Shown here: positions 1 to 4,733 of the stretch, one piece after another
How the letters are laid out: each line of letters begins with the position of its first letter
Position numbering within the stretch: the stretch's first letter is position 1
Source: a virus
Lineage: Duplodnaviria > Heunggongvirae > Uroviricota > Caudoviricetes
IMG/VR virus record: IMGVR_UViG_3300029450_000024
Direction: 5' to 3' (one strand)
DNA: 4,733 nucleotides
Made by a program: the position numbers and the translations under genes
Notes under the pieces: generated by a model
Told to the model about the DNA's origin: nothing
Databases searched by the model: none
The model's input: only the letters and a program-made list of their open reading frames with translations

Positions 1-69
1 CGGTGGAGCTGCATGACAAAGTCATCGGGCATTATCTGAACATAAAACACTATCAATAAGTTGGAGTCA

Positions 70-225
70 TTACCCTGACGTGCATTGCTCAAGTTTTTTA
101 GCCAGCACAAAACTGGCTTTTTTATAGCCATTGAAAACCAGCCGTAAGTAGCCAGGTGTTGAGCCAACTTTTCCGGCCAACTCGCCCTGCTGTTCTTTGG
201 TTAAAGAGTCCCAATACGCTTTCAT
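70..225 (-). CDS. Cro-like small HTH transcriptional regulator (51 aa), divergent from the repressor gene
   Basis: Minus-strand ATG (rc of 223..225) lies 7 nt downstream of a GGAGG Shine-Dalgarno (rc of 236..240); stop is rc of 70..72. Product MKAYWDSLTKEQQGELAGKVGSTPGYLRLVFNGYKKASFVLAKKLEQCTSG resembles short Cro/YdaS-type HTH proteins. Divergent position opposite a CI-like repressor. The provided ORF (70..528) is longer, but its upstream part runs antisense through the repressor gene and lacks an RBS. Confidence 0.65.
   Translation of the reverse strand: MKAYWDSLTKEQQGELAGKVGSTPGYLRLVFNGYKKASFVLAKKLEQCTSG
99..123 (+). terminator. Terminator-like hairpin plus T-tract on the plus strand, embedded antisense within the cro-like coding region
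   Basis: AGCCAG (100..105) / loop CACAAAA (106..112) / CTGGCT (113..118), with six T in a row at 118..123 (the first is the closing stem base). On the minus strand the stem is followed by A-rich sequence, so it is not a minus-strand terminator. Confidence 0.3.
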
Positions 226-227
226 AC

Positions 228-252
228 AATATGTACCTCCGGTGTACATATT
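228..252. promoter_or_regulatory. Operator-like palindrome AATATGTAC-N7-GTACATATT (OR1-like), overlapping the cro RBS/transcript start and the -10 of the leftward promoter
   Basis: Inverted repeat with 9-bp arms (228..236 and 244..252) around a 7-bp spacer, read directly from the sequence. Same core as the 281..299 palindrome. Confidence 0.55.
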
Positions 253-275
253 ACATGATTGAAATGAACCTTCAA
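248..275 (-). promoter_or_regulatory. PR-like sigma70 promoter for the cro-like gene (leftward)
   Basis: On the minus strand: -35 TTGAAG (rc of 270..275), 16-nt spacer, -10 TAATAT (rc of 248..253). Predicted start lies about 15 nt upstream of the cro ATG, leaving room for the GGAGG RBS. Confidence 0.4.
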
Positions 276-279
276 GATA

Positions 280-300
280 CTTGTACCTTAGCGGTACAAG
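280..300. promoter_or_regulatory. Operator-like palindrome CTTGTACC-N5-GGTACAAG (OR3-like), overlapping the -35/spacer of the rightward repressor promoter
   Basis: Perfect 8-bp inverted arms (280..287 / 293..300). Core TTGTAC-N7-GTACAA matches the ATGTAC-N7-GTACAT site at 231..249. Confidence 0.55.
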
Positions 301-309
301 GGTTTTAAT
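281..309 (+). promoter_or_regulatory. PRM-like promoter for the repressor gene; predicted leaderless transcript
   Basis: -35 TTGTAC (281..286), 17-nt spacer, -10 TTTAAT (304..309). The ATG at 316 sits about 7 nt after the -10, and no Shine-Dalgarno is present upstream (GGTTTTAATTTCGTTATG). Confidence 0.4.
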
Positions 310-315
310 TTCGTT

Positions 316-990
316 ATGAAAACAATCCATGACATCCGGCGGTCTAACGCCAGAAAACTGAGAGATGGTGTTGGCGGGAATTCTTCCTTTGCCACTATGA
401 TTGATCGCGAGCCAACCCAGACCAGCAGGTTTATGGGAGATGGGGCTACTAAAAATATCGGTGACAGCATGGCACGACACATCGAAAAATGTTTCGACCT
501 GCCTGTCGGATGGCTCGATCAAGAACACCAGACAACGAACATCACAAAAAAACCTGATGTTTCAATCACTAATAAACAAATCACATTAGTCCCTGTCATA
601 TCATGGGTACAGGCCGGAGCATGGAAAGAAGTTGGATATTCTGAGGTTGATTTGAGCACAGCAGAAACGTATCCCTGCCCTGTACCCTGTGGGGAAATGA
701 CTTATATCTTGCGGGTGATAGGTGATTCAATGATTGATGAGTACCGCCCGGGAGACATGATTTTTGTCGATCCTGAAGTACCTGCCTGCCACGGTGACGA
801 CGTTATTGCATTGATGCACGATACAGGCGAAACCACCTTCAAAAGGTTGATAGAAGATGGGACACAGCGTTATCTCAAAGCGTTAAACCCAAACTGGCCT
901 GAGCCTTACATTAAGATCAACGGTAATTGCTCTATAATTGGTACAGTGATTTTCTCCGGAAAACCAAGAAGATACAAAATCAAAGCCTAA
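316..990 (+). CDS. CI/LexA-like prophage repressor: N-terminal HTH domain plus C-terminal S24 peptidase (autocleavage) domain, 224 aa
   Basis: Intact 224-aa ORF. C-terminal domain carries the S24 signature: a Ser-Lys dyad (GDSM, Ser138 at nt 727..729; FKRL, Lys176 at nt 841..843) and an Ala-Gly candidate cleavage site (VQAG-AW, Ala100-Gly101 at nt 613..618). Divergent from the cro-like gene, with operators between them. Confidence 0.9.
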   Translation: MKTIHDIRRSNARKLRDGVGGNSSFATMIDREPTQTSRFMGDGATKNIGDSMARHIEKCFDLPVGWLDQEHQTTNITKKPDVSITNKQITLVPVISWVQAGAWKEVGYSEVDLSTAETYPCPVPCGEMTYILRVIGDSMIDEYRPGDMIFVDPEVPACHGDDVIALMHDTGETTFKRLIEDGTQRYLKALNPNWPEPYIKINGNCSIIGTVIFSGKPRRYKIKA

Positions 991-1004
991 TCAATGTTTA
1001 TGAA

Positions 1005-1025
1005 CCTGCTTCGGCAGGTTTTTTT
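1005..1025 (+). terminator. Rho-independent terminator downstream of the repressor gene (tImm-like)
   Basis: Stem CCTGC (1005..1009) / loop TTCG / GCAGG (1014..1018), followed by a run of 7 T (1019..1025), 15 nt after the repressor stop codon. Confidence 0.7.
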
Positions 1026-1029
1026 ATAC

Positions 1030-1057
1030 TTGACAATGTACCTTTGAGATACATAAT
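1030..1057 (+). promoter_or_regulatory. PL-like strong sigma70 promoter driving the rightward early operon
   Basis: -35 TTGACA (1030..1035), 16-nt spacer, -10 CATAAT (1052..1057), placed immediately after the terminator. Confidence 0.6.
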
Positions 1058-1073
1058 GTACCCAACCGAAACA
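1036..1073. promoter_or_regulatory. OL-like operator sites overlapping the PL-like promoter
   Basis: ATGTAC-N7-ATACAT at 1036..1054 (one mismatch to the GTACAT half-site) lies in the promoter spacer and -10. A weaker ATGTAC-N7-AAACAA follows at 1055..1073. Confidence 0.45.
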
Positions 1074-1264
1074 ACGAACAGGCAGGACGCCCACGAAGTA
1101 GCCGCCTAGGGCATATGAAGTCCAGGATGATTCGTTGAGTCATGTTGTGCCACCAGGCAATCATGTTAAAGCAGGTGTATGAAATGAAAGTCCAGATTTT
1201 AAACAATAACTGTGAAGTCGTTTGGGCGTAAAACATGACCGCGCGTAGACCAAGGGAGGAAAAA

Positions 1265-1441
1265 GTGGGAATAGTTAGAAATCAAGCAGATATATTGAAA
1301 ATCAGCTCTGAATTACTTGGAGTTTTGAAAAGTGAGCTCACCGCACATGGCATCGAGCCCACTGACGAAAACTTAAGTTGGGTTTTGTCGATTATTCAAC
1401 AATCACTCAAGCCCAGCCTCAGCAAACTTTTTATCGAGTAG
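1265..1441 (+). CDS. Hypothetical small protein (58 aa), first ORF downstream of the PL-like promoter
   Basis: GTG start at 1265, 5 nt after a strong AGGGAGG Shine-Dalgarno (1253..1259); stop TAG at 1439..1441. No recognisable domain and no arginine-rich N-like motif. The provided ORF's ATG at 1235 has no RBS. Confidence 0.4.
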   Translation: MGIVRNQADILKISSELLGVLKSELTAHGIEPTDENLSWVLSIIQQSLKPSLSKLFIE

Positions 1442-1594
1442 TGCTTCGAACTTATCGTAAAGCTTGCTTATGTCGTCTATCGGGTTTTCTGACGTACTGT
1501 AATTTTTATCTGATGTCATGGCAGCAGTCTGATATGCAGTGTGAGTCTTAACCGATAGTTGGAATAAATAAAGAATTTTTTCTTCTTTGGTCAT
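1403..1594 (-). CDS. Hypothetical small acidic protein (63 aa), convergent with and overlapping the 3' end of the 1265..1441 ORF
   Basis: Minus-strand ATG (rc of 1592..1594) preceded by AAGGAAA about 7 nt upstream; the provided ORF's further-upstream start has no RBS. Product MTKEEKILYLFQLSVKTHTAYQTAAMTSDKNYSTSENPIDDISKLYDKFEALLDKKFAEAGLE has no transmembrane segment. Confidence 0.4.
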   Translation of the reverse strand: MTKEEKILYLFQLSVKTHTAYQTAAMTSDKNYSTSENPIDDISKLYDKFEALLDKKFAEAGLE

Positions 1595-1810
1595 AACTAT
1601 TTCCTTCTTGGCTATATGAAAACACCAAGATACCACCGAGCCTGAAGTGGTGAAAAGACAGGCACATAACAGCTAAGTATTTTCAACCAAAGAGAATCCT
1701 TAGCGTTGTGGTGAATGCGGCTCAGCGCACGCGGGTTAAGGTTGAGGCTGACAGTCGACCTTCTGTGGATACCCACCCGTCTGGTGTGCAACCTTCGCCA
1801 GGCACCGGGA

Positions 1811-1831
1811 GGCACCCGGCACCCGGCACCA
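1811..1831. repeat. Tandem heptamer repeat GGCACC(C/A) x3, with a further GGCACC copy at 1801..1806
   Basis: Direct reading: GGCACCC (1811..1817), GGCACCC (1818..1824), GGCACCA (1825..1831), inside a GC-rich non-coding island. Confidence 0.6.
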
Positions 1832-1855
1832 CAACTTTATGCTGTGTGTAGTCCT

Positions 1856-1902
1856 GGCGGTACCAGTTTGTACCCTTGCTTCCGGCTGGTACCGTCCTTT
1901 TT
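1856..1902 (+). terminator. Terminator-like hairpin (tL1-like) upstream of the yfdP homolog
   Basis: Stem CGGTACCAG (1858..1866) pairs with CTGGTACCG (1886..1894), extendable by G1857-U1895 and G1856-C1896; 19-nt loop; then C + TTTTT (1898..1902). Plus-strand only. The long loop makes its efficiency uncertain. Confidence 0.45.
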
Positions 1903-2039
1903 ACAAAACAGAGAAGAGCATCACCGGACGACGGGCTCATAACCCAATCCATCCGGGCGGCTGCCACCGCAGGTGTTCTTCTCTGTTTTGTGGAGAAACT
2001 AATCGGCCTTGCAGGGTCGATATGATGAGGAGCAGCAAA

Positions 2040-2402
2040 ATGGCTAGCGAACGCAGTACTGATGTGCAGGCATTTATCGGGGAGCTGGACGGCGGCGTAT
2101 TTGAAACCAAAATCGGCGCAGTTCTCAGTGAAGTCGCTTCCGGTGTGATGAACACGAAAACCAAAGGTAAGGTCTCACTCAACCTGGAAATCGAACCATT
2201 TGATGAGAACCGTGTGAAAATCAAACACAAACTCTCATATGTTCGCCCGACTAACCGCGGGAAAATTTCCGAAGAAGACACCACCGAAACGCCGATGTAT
2301 GTCAATCGCGGTGGTCGCCTGACTATTCTGCAGGAAGACCAGGGACAGTTACTGACTCTTGCCGGTGAACCTGACGGAAAACTCCGCGCAGCAGGTCGTT
2401 AA
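2040..2402 (+). CDS. yfdP: YfdP-like prophage protein of unknown function (120 aa)
   Basis: ATG at 2040, 6 nt after GAGGAG (2028..2033). The provided 187-aa ORF starts further upstream in GC-rich sequence with a Cys/Arg/Pro-rich, low-complexity extension and no RBS. Assignment is from recalled length and sequence of the K-12 CPS-53 protein and needs BLAST confirmation. Confidence 0.75.
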   Translation: MASERSTDVQAFIGELDGGVFETKIGAVLSEVASGVMNTKTKGKVSLNLEIEPFDENRVKIKHKLSYVRPTNRGKISEEDTTETPMYVNRGGRLTILQEDQGQLLTLAGEPDGKLRAAGR

Positions 2403-2467
2403 TATCGTTTTTAATTAACTGATTATTTATCTCATCACTGAATATCTTTATATAGTGAGGACTTATT

Positions 2468-3292
2468 ATGTCTCAGAACTTAGACGCAACCGCAATTAAT
2501 CAAATCCATGCCCTTATTTCTGCTCAGGGTGTTAATGAAATTATCAGTAAGATTGGTGCCGATGCTGTGGCATTGCCTGAGAATTTCCGCATTCATGATC
2601 TGGAAAAATTTAATTTAAATCGCTTCCGTTTCCGTGGTGCGCTTTCCACTGCCAGCATCGATGACTTTACCCGTTATTCTAAAGATCTTGCAGATGAAGG
2701 CACCCGCTGCTTTATCGATGCTGATAATATGCGTGCCGTCAGTGTGCTTAACCTGGGTACTATTGATGAACCAGGTCACGCAGATAACACCGCCACTCTC
2801 AAACTGAAAAAGACAGCACCGTTCTCTGCTCTGTTGTCTGTTAACGGCGAGCGTAACTCCCAGAAGTCACTGGCAGAATGGATTGAAGACTGGGCCGACT
2901 ACCTTGTGGGCTTTGATGCTAATGGTGACGCCATTCAGGCAACAAAAGCGGCTGCGGCAGTCCGTAAAATCACAATTGAAGCGAACCAGACTGCTGATTT
3001 TGAAGACAATGACTTCAGCGGCAAACGCTCCCTGATGGAGTCTGTCGAAGCGAAGACCAAAGACATTATGCCAGTGGCATTTGAATTTAAATGCGTTCCG
3101 TTTGAAGGCCTGAAAGAACGTCCATTTAAATTACGACCCAGCATTATCACTGGCGATCGTCCTGTACTGGTTCTGCGCATTATTCAGCTGGAAGCGGTGC
3201 AGGAAGATATGGCTAACGAATTTCGTGATCTGCTTGTTGAGAAATTCAAAGACAGCAAAGTAGAAACCTTTATTGGTACTTTCACCGCCTGA
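2468..3292 (+). CDS. yfdQ: YfdQ-like protein (DUF2303 family by recall), 274 aa
   Basis: Long intact ORF; ATG about 7 nt after GTGAGGA. Matches by recall the K-12 CPS-53 YfdQ length and N-terminus ([12 protein letters not shown]...). Confidence 0.85.
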
Positions 3293-3304
3293 TTTCATTA
3301 CTGC

Positions 3305-3330
3305 AAATGCCCCTGCGGGGGCATTTATGG
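3305..3330 (+). terminator. GC-rich hairpin with a weak U-tail between the yfdQ and yfdR homologs (possible attenuator or partial terminator)
   Basis: AAATGCCCC (3305..3313) / loop TGCG / GGGGCATTT (3318..3326), a perfect 9-bp stem, followed by ATGG rather than a clean T-run. Confidence 0.35.
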
Positions 3331-3419
3331 AAACGTAATTAACTCAATAATCACCGGATGGTGAGGGCTTCCTTTTACCCAAACTCAGCGCGGTGCAGCG
3401 CATATACGTGGAGAACAAA

Positions 3420-3956
3420 ATGTCATTTATTAAAACTTTTTCCGGGAAGCATTTTTATTATGACAGGATAAATAAAGACGACATCGTGATTAACGATATC
3501 GCGGTTTCCCTTTCAAATATCTGCCGCTTTGCCGGTCATCTTTCTCACTTCTACAGTGTCGCCCAACATGCGGTGCTTTGCAGCCAGCTGGTGCCGCAGG
3601 AATTTGCTTTTGAAGCGTTAATGCATGATGCAACAGAAGCGTATTGCCAGGACATCCCCGCACCACTGAAACGCCTTCTTCCTGACTATAAACGGATGGA
3701 AGAAAAAATAGATGCAGTAATCCGTGAGAAATACGGGTTACCTCCTGTTATGAGCACGCCAGTGAAATATGCCGATCTCATTATGCTGGCAACCGAACGC
3801 CGTGATCTCGGGCTTGATGATGGCTCTTTCTGGCCTGTACTGGAAGGCATCCCGGCAACAGAGATGTTCAACGTGATTCCACTGGCACCGGGTCATGCCT
3901 ACGGGATGTTTATGGAACGTTTTAACGATTTATCGGAGTTACGCAAATGCGCATGA
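3420..3956 (+). CDS. yfdR: HD-domain phosphohydrolase, YfdR-like (5'-deoxynucleotidase family), 178 aa
   Basis: HD-superfamily motifs: His50 in SVAQHA (nt 3567..3569) and His69-Asp70 in LMHDATE (nt 3624..3629). ATG at 3420 preceded by GGAGA; the GTG at 3393 used in the ORF track has no RBS. Length matches K-12 YfdR by recall. Confidence 0.88.
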   Translation: MSFIKTFSGKHFYYDRINKDDIVINDIAVSLSNICRFAGHLSHFYSVAQHAVLCSQLVPQEFAFEALMHDATEAYCQDIPAPLKRLLPDYKRMEEKIDAVIREKYGLPPVMSTPVKYADLIMLATERRDLGLDDGSFWPVLEGIPATEMFNVIPLAPGHAYGMFMERFNDLSELRKCA

Positions 3957-4309
3957 ATGTTTTCGAAATGGAAGGGTTTCTTCGCGGGAAATGTGTACCG
4001 CGAGATCTGAAAGTGAACGAAACAAATGCTGAGTACCTGGTACGTAAATTCGACGCGCTTGAAGCTAAATGTGCGGCACTGGAAAACAAAATAATACCAG
4101 TGTCAGCTGAACTGCCACCAGCAAATGAAAGTGTTCTGTTATTTGATGCTAATGGAGAAGGCTGGCTGATTGGCTGGCGTTCTCTCTGGTACACCTGGGG
4201 ACAAAAAGAAACCGGAGAATGGCAGTGGACATTTCAGGTTGGGGACCTTGAAAACGTCAATATCACTCACTGGGCAGTTATGCCAAAAGCACCGGAGGCT
4301 GGAGCATAA
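3947..4309 (+). CDS. yfdS: YfdS-like protein of unknown function (120 aa)
   Basis: ATG at 3947 overlaps the yfdR stop (ATGCGCATGA, TGA at 3954..3956); GGAG lies 9 nt upstream. Trp-rich C-terminal half. Recalled K-12 homolog is 120 aa. Confidence 0.8.
   Translation: MRMNVFEMEGFLRGKCVPRDLKVNETNAEYLVRKFDALEAKCAALENKIIPVSAELPPANESVLLFDANGEGWLIGWRSLWYTWGQKETGEWQWTFQVGDLENVNITHWAVMPKAPEAGA
4115..4122 (-). other. Chi octamer (5'-GCTGGTGG-3' on the minus strand)
   Basis: Plus-strand CCACCAGC at 4115..4122, inside the yfdS-like gene. Confidence 0.5.
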
Positions 4310-4614
4310 TGACCACATTTACCAATAAAGAACTGATTAAAGAAATCAAAGAACGAATCAGCAGCCTAGAGGTTCGAGACGATATTGAGCGCCGTGCTTA
4401 TGAAATCGCACTCGTATCTCTGGAAGTAGAGCCAGATGAACGCGAAGCCTATGAATTATTCATGGAAAAGCGTTTCGGTGACTTAGTAGATCGTCGGAGA
4501 GCAAAAAACGGCGATAACGAATACATGGCATGGGATATGACTCTCGGTTGGATCGTCTGGCAGCAACGAGCTGGTATCCATTTTTCAACAATGTCACAGC
4601 AAGAGGTGAAATAA
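4309..4614 (+). CDS. yfdT: YfdT-like protein of unknown function (101 aa)
   Basis: Start ATG overlaps the yfdS stop (TAATG at 4307..4311). Recalled K-12 homolog is 101 aa. Confidence 0.8.
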   Translation: MTTFTNKELIKEIKERISSLEVRDDIERRAYEIALVSLEVEPDEREAYELFMEKRFGDLVDRRRAKNGDNEYMAWDMTLGWIVWQQRAGIHFSTMSQQEVK

Positions 4615-4733
4615 TGGAGCCATACAGCCTGAACCGCCCCGGGTTTCCTGGAGAGTGTTTTATCTGTGAACTCAGGCTGCCAGATCATCGTTTCCGATGG
4701 AAGCATAATAAGCTTTTTCTGCTTCTGCCGGAG
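4614..4733 (+). CDS. Partial CDS (N-terminal 40 codons, continues beyond the window), hypothetical protein with a CxxC motif
   Basis: ATG at 4614 overlaps the yfdT stop (TAATG); GAGGTG Shine-Dalgarno at 4603..4608. Open to the window end: MEPYSLNRPGFPGECFICELRLPDHRFRWKHNKLFLLLPE... Confidence 0.5.
   Translation, partial: MEPYSLNRPGFPGECFICELRLPDHRFRWKHNKLFLLLPE

Follow-up and report, generated by a model that had tools for sequence, protein, structure and literature searches.

The intergenic region that follows the repressor gene in a 4,733-nt stretch of viral DNA (the window, by which we mean the whole stretch analysed) very probably marks the left edge of the immunity region in a lambdoid prophage of the e14/SfV type, at which the repressor transcription unit ends and is followed by a predicted early-left promoter, PL, together with two putative operators, OL1 and OL2 (Table 1). 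In the repressed state, the transcript of the repressor gene (316-990) would stop at the terminator, at 1021-1027, short of the early-left genes, and repressor dimers bound at OL1 (between the -35 and -10 hexamers) and at OL2 (from the -10 to about +10) would keep RNA polymerase off PL. Upon DNA damage the S24 repressor would cleave itself, PL and the divergent PR would be released, and transcription would run rightward from about A1064 through small mosaic ORFs and the homologues of yfdP/Q/R/S/T towards xis and int, beyond the window. The repressor binding, promoter activity, start point and terminator efficiency in this account are what we infer from the sequence.

Table 1 Features of the junction and its surroundings. 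Coordinates are those of the window unless a locus is named; regulatory roles are predicted.
Feature	Position	Strand	Description
Right end of IS1 copy	1-73		Truncates the cro-like gene
Truncated cro-like gene	76-225	minus	Weak HTH_3 match; homologue of e14 ymfT/croE and SfV cro
OR site A	231-249		ATGTAC-CTCCGGT-GTACAT; perfect palindrome; over the cro ribosome-binding site and the putative PR start
Candidate PR	248-275	minus	TTGAAG-N16-TAATAT; 8/12, below scan threshold; directed toward cro; putative
Possible third OR site	264-282		ATGAAC-N7-ATACTT; 3/12 mismatches; weak, putative
OR site B	281-299		TTGTAC-CTTAGCG-GTACAA; perfect TGTAC-N7-GTACA core
CI-type S24 repressor gene	316-990	plus	224 aa; YmfK/CohE of e14, cI of SfV
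Intrinsic terminator of the repressor transcript	1002-1025	plus	8-bp GC-rich stem, UUCG loop, U7
PL	1030-1057	plus	TTGACA-N16-CATAAT; 11/12
OL1	1036-1054		ATGTAC-CTTTGAG-ATACAT; spans the -35/-10 spacer plus the first half of the -10
OL2	1056-1074		ATGTAC-CCAACCG-AAACAA; weaker; last two -10 bases to about +10
Predicted transcription start (A)	1064	plus	7 nt past the -10; equals K-12 1202185, minus strand; placed from promoter geometry
Start of early-left leader	1075-1136	plus	Conserved in SfV, e14 and SfII; outside immunity-specific DNA
Small ORF	1235-1441	plus	phrog_15476 (unknown-function family); convergent with the next ORF, 3′ ends overlapping
Small ORF	1403-1594	minus	phrog_2605 (unknown-function family)
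Further downstream genes			Homologues of yfdP, yfdQ (DUF2303), yfdR (HD phosphatase), yfdS (DUF551) and yfdT
C4/isrK matches in other phages	SfV (L001) 1312-1500; Ayreon (L002) 1312-1500; mEp460 (L084) 323-511; Lys8385Vzw (L085) 628-813; WGPS2 (L086) 268-456	minus	

Bases 74-4630 of the window are 96-98% identical by megablast to the Shigella phages SfV and SfIV, to several Escherichia phages and to Stx2c-converting phages. Matches to the ymfT-ymfK region of E. coli prophages cover the first 1.3 kb, and from the start codon of the cro-like gene to about position 1100 the identity with e14, the cryptic prophage of K-12, is 99%. This e14/SfV immunity type is carried by K-12 and by roughly 850 of 5,426 complete E. 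coli genomes, as well as by serotype-converting phages of Shigella and several Stx2c phages. Homology of the SfV type begins at position 74; the 73 bases before it have thousands of matches across E. coli genomes and carry a PGAP annotation of IS1A transposase. The closest complete genome, that of E. coli strain 81, carries the element as a remnant adjoining tRNA-Thr/proA in which IS1 fuses the truncated cro to a partial tail gene, leaving the whole right arm of the prophage missing. Strain 81 also carries an IS3-family element after the yfdT homologue (about 4615-4733 of the window). The element is an IS1-truncated remnant, so that "lytic" transcription is a nominal term here.

The repressor gene is 99% identical in nucleotide sequence to K-12 ymfK. 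Its product matches Peptidase_S24 at residues 93-212 (E = 1.5e-26), its C-terminal domain aligns with that of lambda CI (E = 2e-9), the lysine of FK(R/K)L included, and the translation contains the cleavage motifs Ala100-Gly101, Ser138 (GDSM) and Lys176 (FKRL), features that place the predicted protein in the LexA/CI class of autocleaving S24 repressors. The divergent cro-like gene next to it, of which the window keeps a truncated copy, is named ymfT in intact relatives and lies at 2452-2652 of the SfV locus (L001). We note that the repressor gene is devoid of a Shine-Dalgarno sequence and that TTTAAT (304-309) stands 7 nt before its AUG (window 300-318, plus strand). By analogy with lambda cI transcribed from PRM, the maintenance transcript may be leaderless, in which case OR site B would overlap the -35 and spacer of the maintenance promoter.

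The putative terminator was found by a pattern scan as a stem, GAACCTGC/GCAGGTTT (1002-1021), closed by a TTCG loop and followed by a T7 run (1019-1025) whose first three T residues double as the last three bases of the stem. It folds with -11.6 kcal/mol (z = -3.9), and none of 200 shuffled sequences was as stable. Stem and loop are unchanged in all 33 variants of this stretch that we collected (see below); the one exception within the element, L032, differs in the T-run, apparently by length. A rho-independent terminator is already annotated here in SfV (U82619, as "putative") and in Ayreon. These observations point, at the level of sequence, to a terminator of the repressor transcription unit. 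A second match of the terminator scan, at 280-300, is the palindrome of OR site B instead.

No 3′ end is given for the ymfK terminator in the Term-seq tables of K-12, which may be due only to low expression of ymfK. The same lack of an in vivo 3′ end, and the presence of a minus-strand gene (1403-1594) that faces the region, could be taken to mean that the hairpin chiefly serves to stabilise the repressor mRNA at its 3′ end, or to block antisense transcription from the right, and does not insulate. However, the U-run exists on the plus strand only. The minus-strand flank reads UUCAUAAAC and offers no terminator tail, so that a bidirectional terminator was ruled out, and the minus strand has a hairpin of its own, with a T-rich tail, at 1094-1078. 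Moreover, the terminators of SfII, mEp460 and Lys8385Vzw lie on the plus strand at the same spot, and a stabilising role would supplement termination, not displace it. We therefore regard a hairpin of this non-insulating kind as highly improbable and retain its reading as the terminator of the repressor transcript. As to the hairpin at 1078-1094, its strand specificity comes from G-U pairs, the SfII copy has a better T-run, and it may halt leftward transcription from mosaic genes before this reaches PL and the repressor gene.

The -35 hexamer of PL (TTGACA, 1030-1035) begins after only four bases (ATAC, 1026-1029) past the T-run and is paired with a -10 hexamer CATAAT at 1052-1057. This is the best match in our promoter scan, and no other promoter match in the window reaches 11/12. 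When dinucleotide shuffles were made of the whole window, about 10% contained a match of at least 11/12 somewhere (0.10 matches per 9.5 kb of strand), and a match on the same strand within a few bases of the terminator is thus very unlikely to arise by chance. Each of the two hexamers is altered in only 1 of the 33 variants, and the annotation of phage Ayreon (MF807953) labels PL as "promoter". Taken together, these findings point to a predicted sigma-70 promoter that faces away from the repressor gene and towards the early-left genes. The earlier note on this DNA had proposed a strong terminator at 1005..1025 with TTGACA-N16-CATAAT within 5 bp of it; both elements are borne out by the fold (z = -3.9, with the stem starting at 1002) and by the gap of 4 bp ahead of 1030-1057. 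No mapped 5′ end, footprint or reporter for PL was found in the literature examined, and the supplements of the ROSE in vitro transcription study and of Reg-Seq contain nothing on ymfJ or ymfK. The window also contains a second promoter-like match, TTAAGA-N16-TATAAT (10/12, 911-938, plus strand), which lies within the 3′-terminal part of the repressor gene, some 60 nt upstream of the terminator, and is probably a chance match.

The putative operators that overlap PL match the operator sequences at OR. Sequences of the form TGTAC-N7-RTACA, with at most one mismatch, occur exactly four times in the window, twice at OR and twice at OL, and for the 12-position motif, again with at most one mismatch, 0.003 occurrences are expected per shuffled window and two are seen. 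OL1 and OL2 are spaced 20 bp from centre to centre, and the right half of OL2 matches at 3 of 5 core positions. On the other side of the repressor gene, reading the minus strand gives the hexamers TTGAAG (275-270) and TAATAT (253-248) for a candidate PR; OR site A begins at the final 2 nt of the -10 of this putative promoter, and OL2 has the same geometry at PL. The block of OR sites falls within the "putative operator region" annotated in SfV, and the OL operators are unannotated in the records examined, those of SfV and Ayreon included. No third operator is found at PL, even with 3 mismatches allowed. The earlier note had described an ATGTAC-N7-ATACAT sequence across the spacer and -10, which is indeed present at 1036-1054, and a second ATGTAC "half-site"; the latter is there too, as the left half of a complete, weaker 19-bp site (1056-1074). 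For the e14/SfV immunity type, the analysis thus provides a specific operator consensus, TGTAC-N7-(G/A)TACA, together with a predicted start for PL.

We compared the putative operators among homoimmune loci, using 80 viral contigs fetched from IMG/VR, every one of which encodes a repressor 100% identical to that of the window. Together with SfV, Ayreon and e14, these gave 33 variants of the 100 bp past the repressor stop codon and about two dozen distinct OR-region sequences. Variable positions are concentrated in the N7 spacers (12 of 28) relative to the 5-bp half-site cores (5 of 40; Fisher's exact p = 0.009), and four of the five variable core positions are changes in single loci. At OL1 the half-site cores are invariant and the spacer varies at 5 of 7 positions; at OL2 the right half is invariant, the spacer is highly variable, and the left half is altered in three single loci. 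The sole common half-site change is G244A in OR site A, which converts GTACAT to ATACAT, the right half of OL1; the OR of SfV carries the ATACAT form. OL1 is hence allele-equivalent to the right-hand operator, and not a mismatched copy of it.

The edges of the immunity-specific DNA coincide with these sites as well. Mosaic junctions among homoimmune loci lie at about 1088 (Ayreon), at about 1136 (the e14 type, 61 loci) and at 1236-1252 (the SfV type, 14 loci), with none in 991-1074, and the homology of heteroimmune SfII picks up again at about 1073-1075, the outer edge of OL2. In the phage collection, repressors were either at least 95% or less than 60% identical, save for two records at 60-80%; the footprint within the type and the comparison with heteroimmune phages were used in place of repressor-operator covariation. 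The footprint, the G244A allele and the edge of the immunity DNA together support, from comparative sequence evidence, the designation of these sites as operators.

The same data bear on whether PL might instead be a constitutive "moron" promoter that serves the small mosaic genes free of the repressor, its ATGTAC motifs being due to chance or shared ancestry. The DNA past the leader is mosaic, with three different inserts among homoimmune loci: the insert with the ORFs at 1235-1441 and 1403-1594 is present in 5 of the 80 loci, and e14, SfV and Ayreon have different inserts at this position. Mosaic inserts often bring their own signals, and promoter-like matches overall are not enriched in the window (5 observed against 7.3 expected). 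Nevertheless, PL lies within the immunity-specific block and outside the mosaic inserts, the operator motif is rare in shuffled windows, half-sites and spacers contrast in conservation, and ymfJ of e14 remains silent up to a late stage of the SOS response. We consider a promoter of this sort very hard to credit, and PL is treated below as the repressor-controlled early-left promoter.

A junction of this layout is also found in heteroimmune relatives. In SfII and mEp460 a terminator stands right after the repressor gene and two TTGCA-N5-CGCAA sites follow within about 11-20 bp, the same motif being present in the OR regions of both phages. In Lys8385Vzw the terminator is accompanied by an operator of that phage's own type (ATGTAGGATA-type) and by a PL with TTGACA-N18-TACATT, and its PL and PR have identical hexamers and spacing. 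All three resemble the window in that a plus-strand terminator after the repressor gene is followed 10-40 bp on by operator copies, and they share with it, as does Stx2a_WGPS2, an early-left module made up of a terminator, a large hairpin and yfdP/Q/R. They differ from the window in their repressors and operator motifs; in addition, the promoters of SfII and mEp460 match the consensus more poorly than PL of the window does, and that of Lys8385Vzw lies farther from the terminator. As judged from these sequences, the junction is a standard design of this phage group, in which the recognition sequence is swapped together with the repressor.

The right arms of several of these phages, a region absent from the window, contain a further element. 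On the minus strand of SfV, Ayreon, mEp460, Lys8385Vzw and WGPS2 we found Rfam matches to C4 antisense RNA (75-84 bits) and isrK (59-67 bits), all above the gathering score. They fall within a gene annotated "immunity region" in SfV and Ayreon and "peptidase" in Lys8385Vzw; in mEp460 and WGPS2 the gene is labelled "transcriptional regulator", and its annotation mentions similarity to a putative antirepressor. The matches suggest that these phages may use antisense control of an antirepressor like that of P1 immI.

Expression data for e14 in K-12 are consistent with repressor control of PL. The first gene downstream of PL in e14 is ymfJ, whose log2 fold changes under ciprofloxacin are 1.34, 4.05 and 4.83; those of ymfM, in the other arm of e14, are 1.44, 4.00 and 4.77, and both genes rise late in the SOS response, after the LexA-controlled genes (PMC11002266). 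Both arms belong to one iModulon (peak activity: fur mutant, H2O2), for which the authors credit YmfT as the regulator (PMC10602906, PMC12132413). Cleavage of YmfK/CohE that frees two promoters would, we infer, explain the "YmfT iModulon" and the late-SOS induction more simply; the ymfM paper calls control by the CI-like repressor of e14 only "likely". In uninduced K-12, Term-seq also detects strong 3′ ends on the same strand farther downstream, implying some rightward transcription in lysogens.

The iModulon assignment raises the possibility that the sites are bound chiefly by the Cro-like YmfT, with PL subject to Cro-type turn-down or activation and not to CI-type repression. Cro and CI share operators in lambda, and by this analogy the Cro-like protein, truncated in the remnant, probably shares the sites here too. 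However, ymfT is itself within the induced gene set, as expected of a gene that is derepressed and not of the sensor, and the late-SOS kinetics suit slow autocleavage of a CI-like protein. YmfK has the Ala-Gly, Ser and Lys motifs and a C-terminal domain like that of lambda CI, and in the window the cro-like gene is truncated by IS1 while the repressor gene, OR and OL are intact. Control chiefly by YmfT is therefore quite improbable in our estimation. Binding by both YmfK and YmfT is likely, and is compatible with PL being repressed by the CI-like protein.

Among known loci the closest counterpart of the junction is the intergenic region between ymfK (cohE) and ymfJ of e14 (NC_000913.3, about 1202185-1202258, minus strand), which is essentially the same DNA: the two have the same repressor and cro-like genes, are 99% identical from OR through the repressor gene and its terminator to PL, OL1 and OL2, and differ at only three bases in 991-1090, two of them in the OL2 spacer. 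Past about 1136, e14 has ymfJ/ymfI where the window has small ORFs, and e14 retains the right arm, ymfT-L-M-N, that the window has lost to IS1. The cI-orf33 junction of SfV (U82619 / NC_003444) is about 97% identical to that of the window and differs from it in spacer bases of OL1 and OL2 and in the first downstream gene, orf33; at this position the SfV record is annotated with neither a promoter nor operators.

Transcripts from PL would have to cross two conserved RNA elements. At 1683-1904 (plus strand) the window has a sub-threshold match to Rfam STnc100 (30 bits, gathering score 47); the copies in SfV and SfII reach 39.5 bits, and that of e14 also has a weak DicF match (28.5 bits, gathering score 48). 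The element closes with a strong terminator at 1856-1904 (-20.5 kcal/mol, z = -3.1), and a frameshifted ymfH-like ORF is annotated across the element by PGAP. Term-seq in K-12 has mapped in vivo 3′ ends at the e14 positions that correspond to about 1665, 1839 and 1904, so that an sRNA-like transcript probably exists at 1683-1904. A put-like element in two copies was considered and rejected, as the STnc100-like Rfam match is confined to the left arm. Directly 3′ of the terminator, at 1900-1994 (plus strand), 95 nt fold into a hairpin that has a stem of some 23 bp plus two inner arms (-49 kcal/mol, z = -7.2). This hairpin is kept in every homoimmune and heteroimmune locus examined; in its e14-type copies, G-U/G-C and C-G/U-G changes preserve the pairing. 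It may serve as a site of processing by RNase III before yfdP.

SfV, SfII and SfIV lack N, cII and cIII (PMC3851460). None of the downstream ORFs in the window has a Pfam, NCBIfam or PHROG match to an N-type antiterminator, and folds of 1064-1145 and 1064-1270 on both strands (z from +0.3 to -1.4 against shuffles) show no structured leader or nut/put-like RNA; neither nutL nor an N-type antiterminator was found as a first function past PL. By eye only, a 5-bp leader stem has a possible compensatory change between e14 and SfV. The distal e14 genes intE and xisE are co-induced with ymfJ. It is possible, though we think it unlikely, that the conserved block formed by 1683-1904 and 1900-1994 is a cis-acting RNA module that would gate the N-less early-left operon by processive antitermination or processing, with no need of an N-like protein, or, as a related option, that the C-terminal domain, like that of lambda CI, would let OL and OR, only about 0.8 kb apart, act cooperatively through a DNA loop. 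The conserved block of sRNA-like element, terminator and very stable hairpin, which transcripts from PL must cross in phages without N, is the only thread with more potential in this locus. The dicA/dicB operon of Qin, with DicF, is a repressor-controlled early-left operon that has an internal sRNA-like element and terminator and is read through to its distal genes. The early-left operon of the window is like it in holding an sRNA-like element and a terminator ahead of the distal genes, although the likeness to DicF itself is weak, as the score of the e14 copy given above indicates.

A well-known design of this order and logic is the tImm-OL/PL region of lambda, in which the terminator of the repressor transcript is likewise followed by a strong early-left promoter on the same strand with operators like those at OR. 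In lambda, rexA and rexB lie between cI and tImm, about 200 bp separate tImm from PL, there are three 17-bp operators, N and nutL are the first functions past PL, and the repressor is inactivated by RecA-stimulated self-cleavage. The window differs in having no rex genes, a terminator that is 4 bp from the -35, and two 19-bp operators in place of three. The reading of the junction as a lambda-like tImm-PL/OL region thus stands as to the layout and the shared operators and fails as to three operators, rex, N/nut and an intact host element. What the window offers is a new, uncharacterised instance of a well-known design, parts of which are already annotated publicly; it leaves the understanding of phage regulation unchanged, and its practical value is modest. 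On the evidence of sequence and comparison, the lambda-like reading is supported, and the junction amounts to an ordinary control point of the lambdoid kind, in a prophage type that is very common in E. coli and Shigella.
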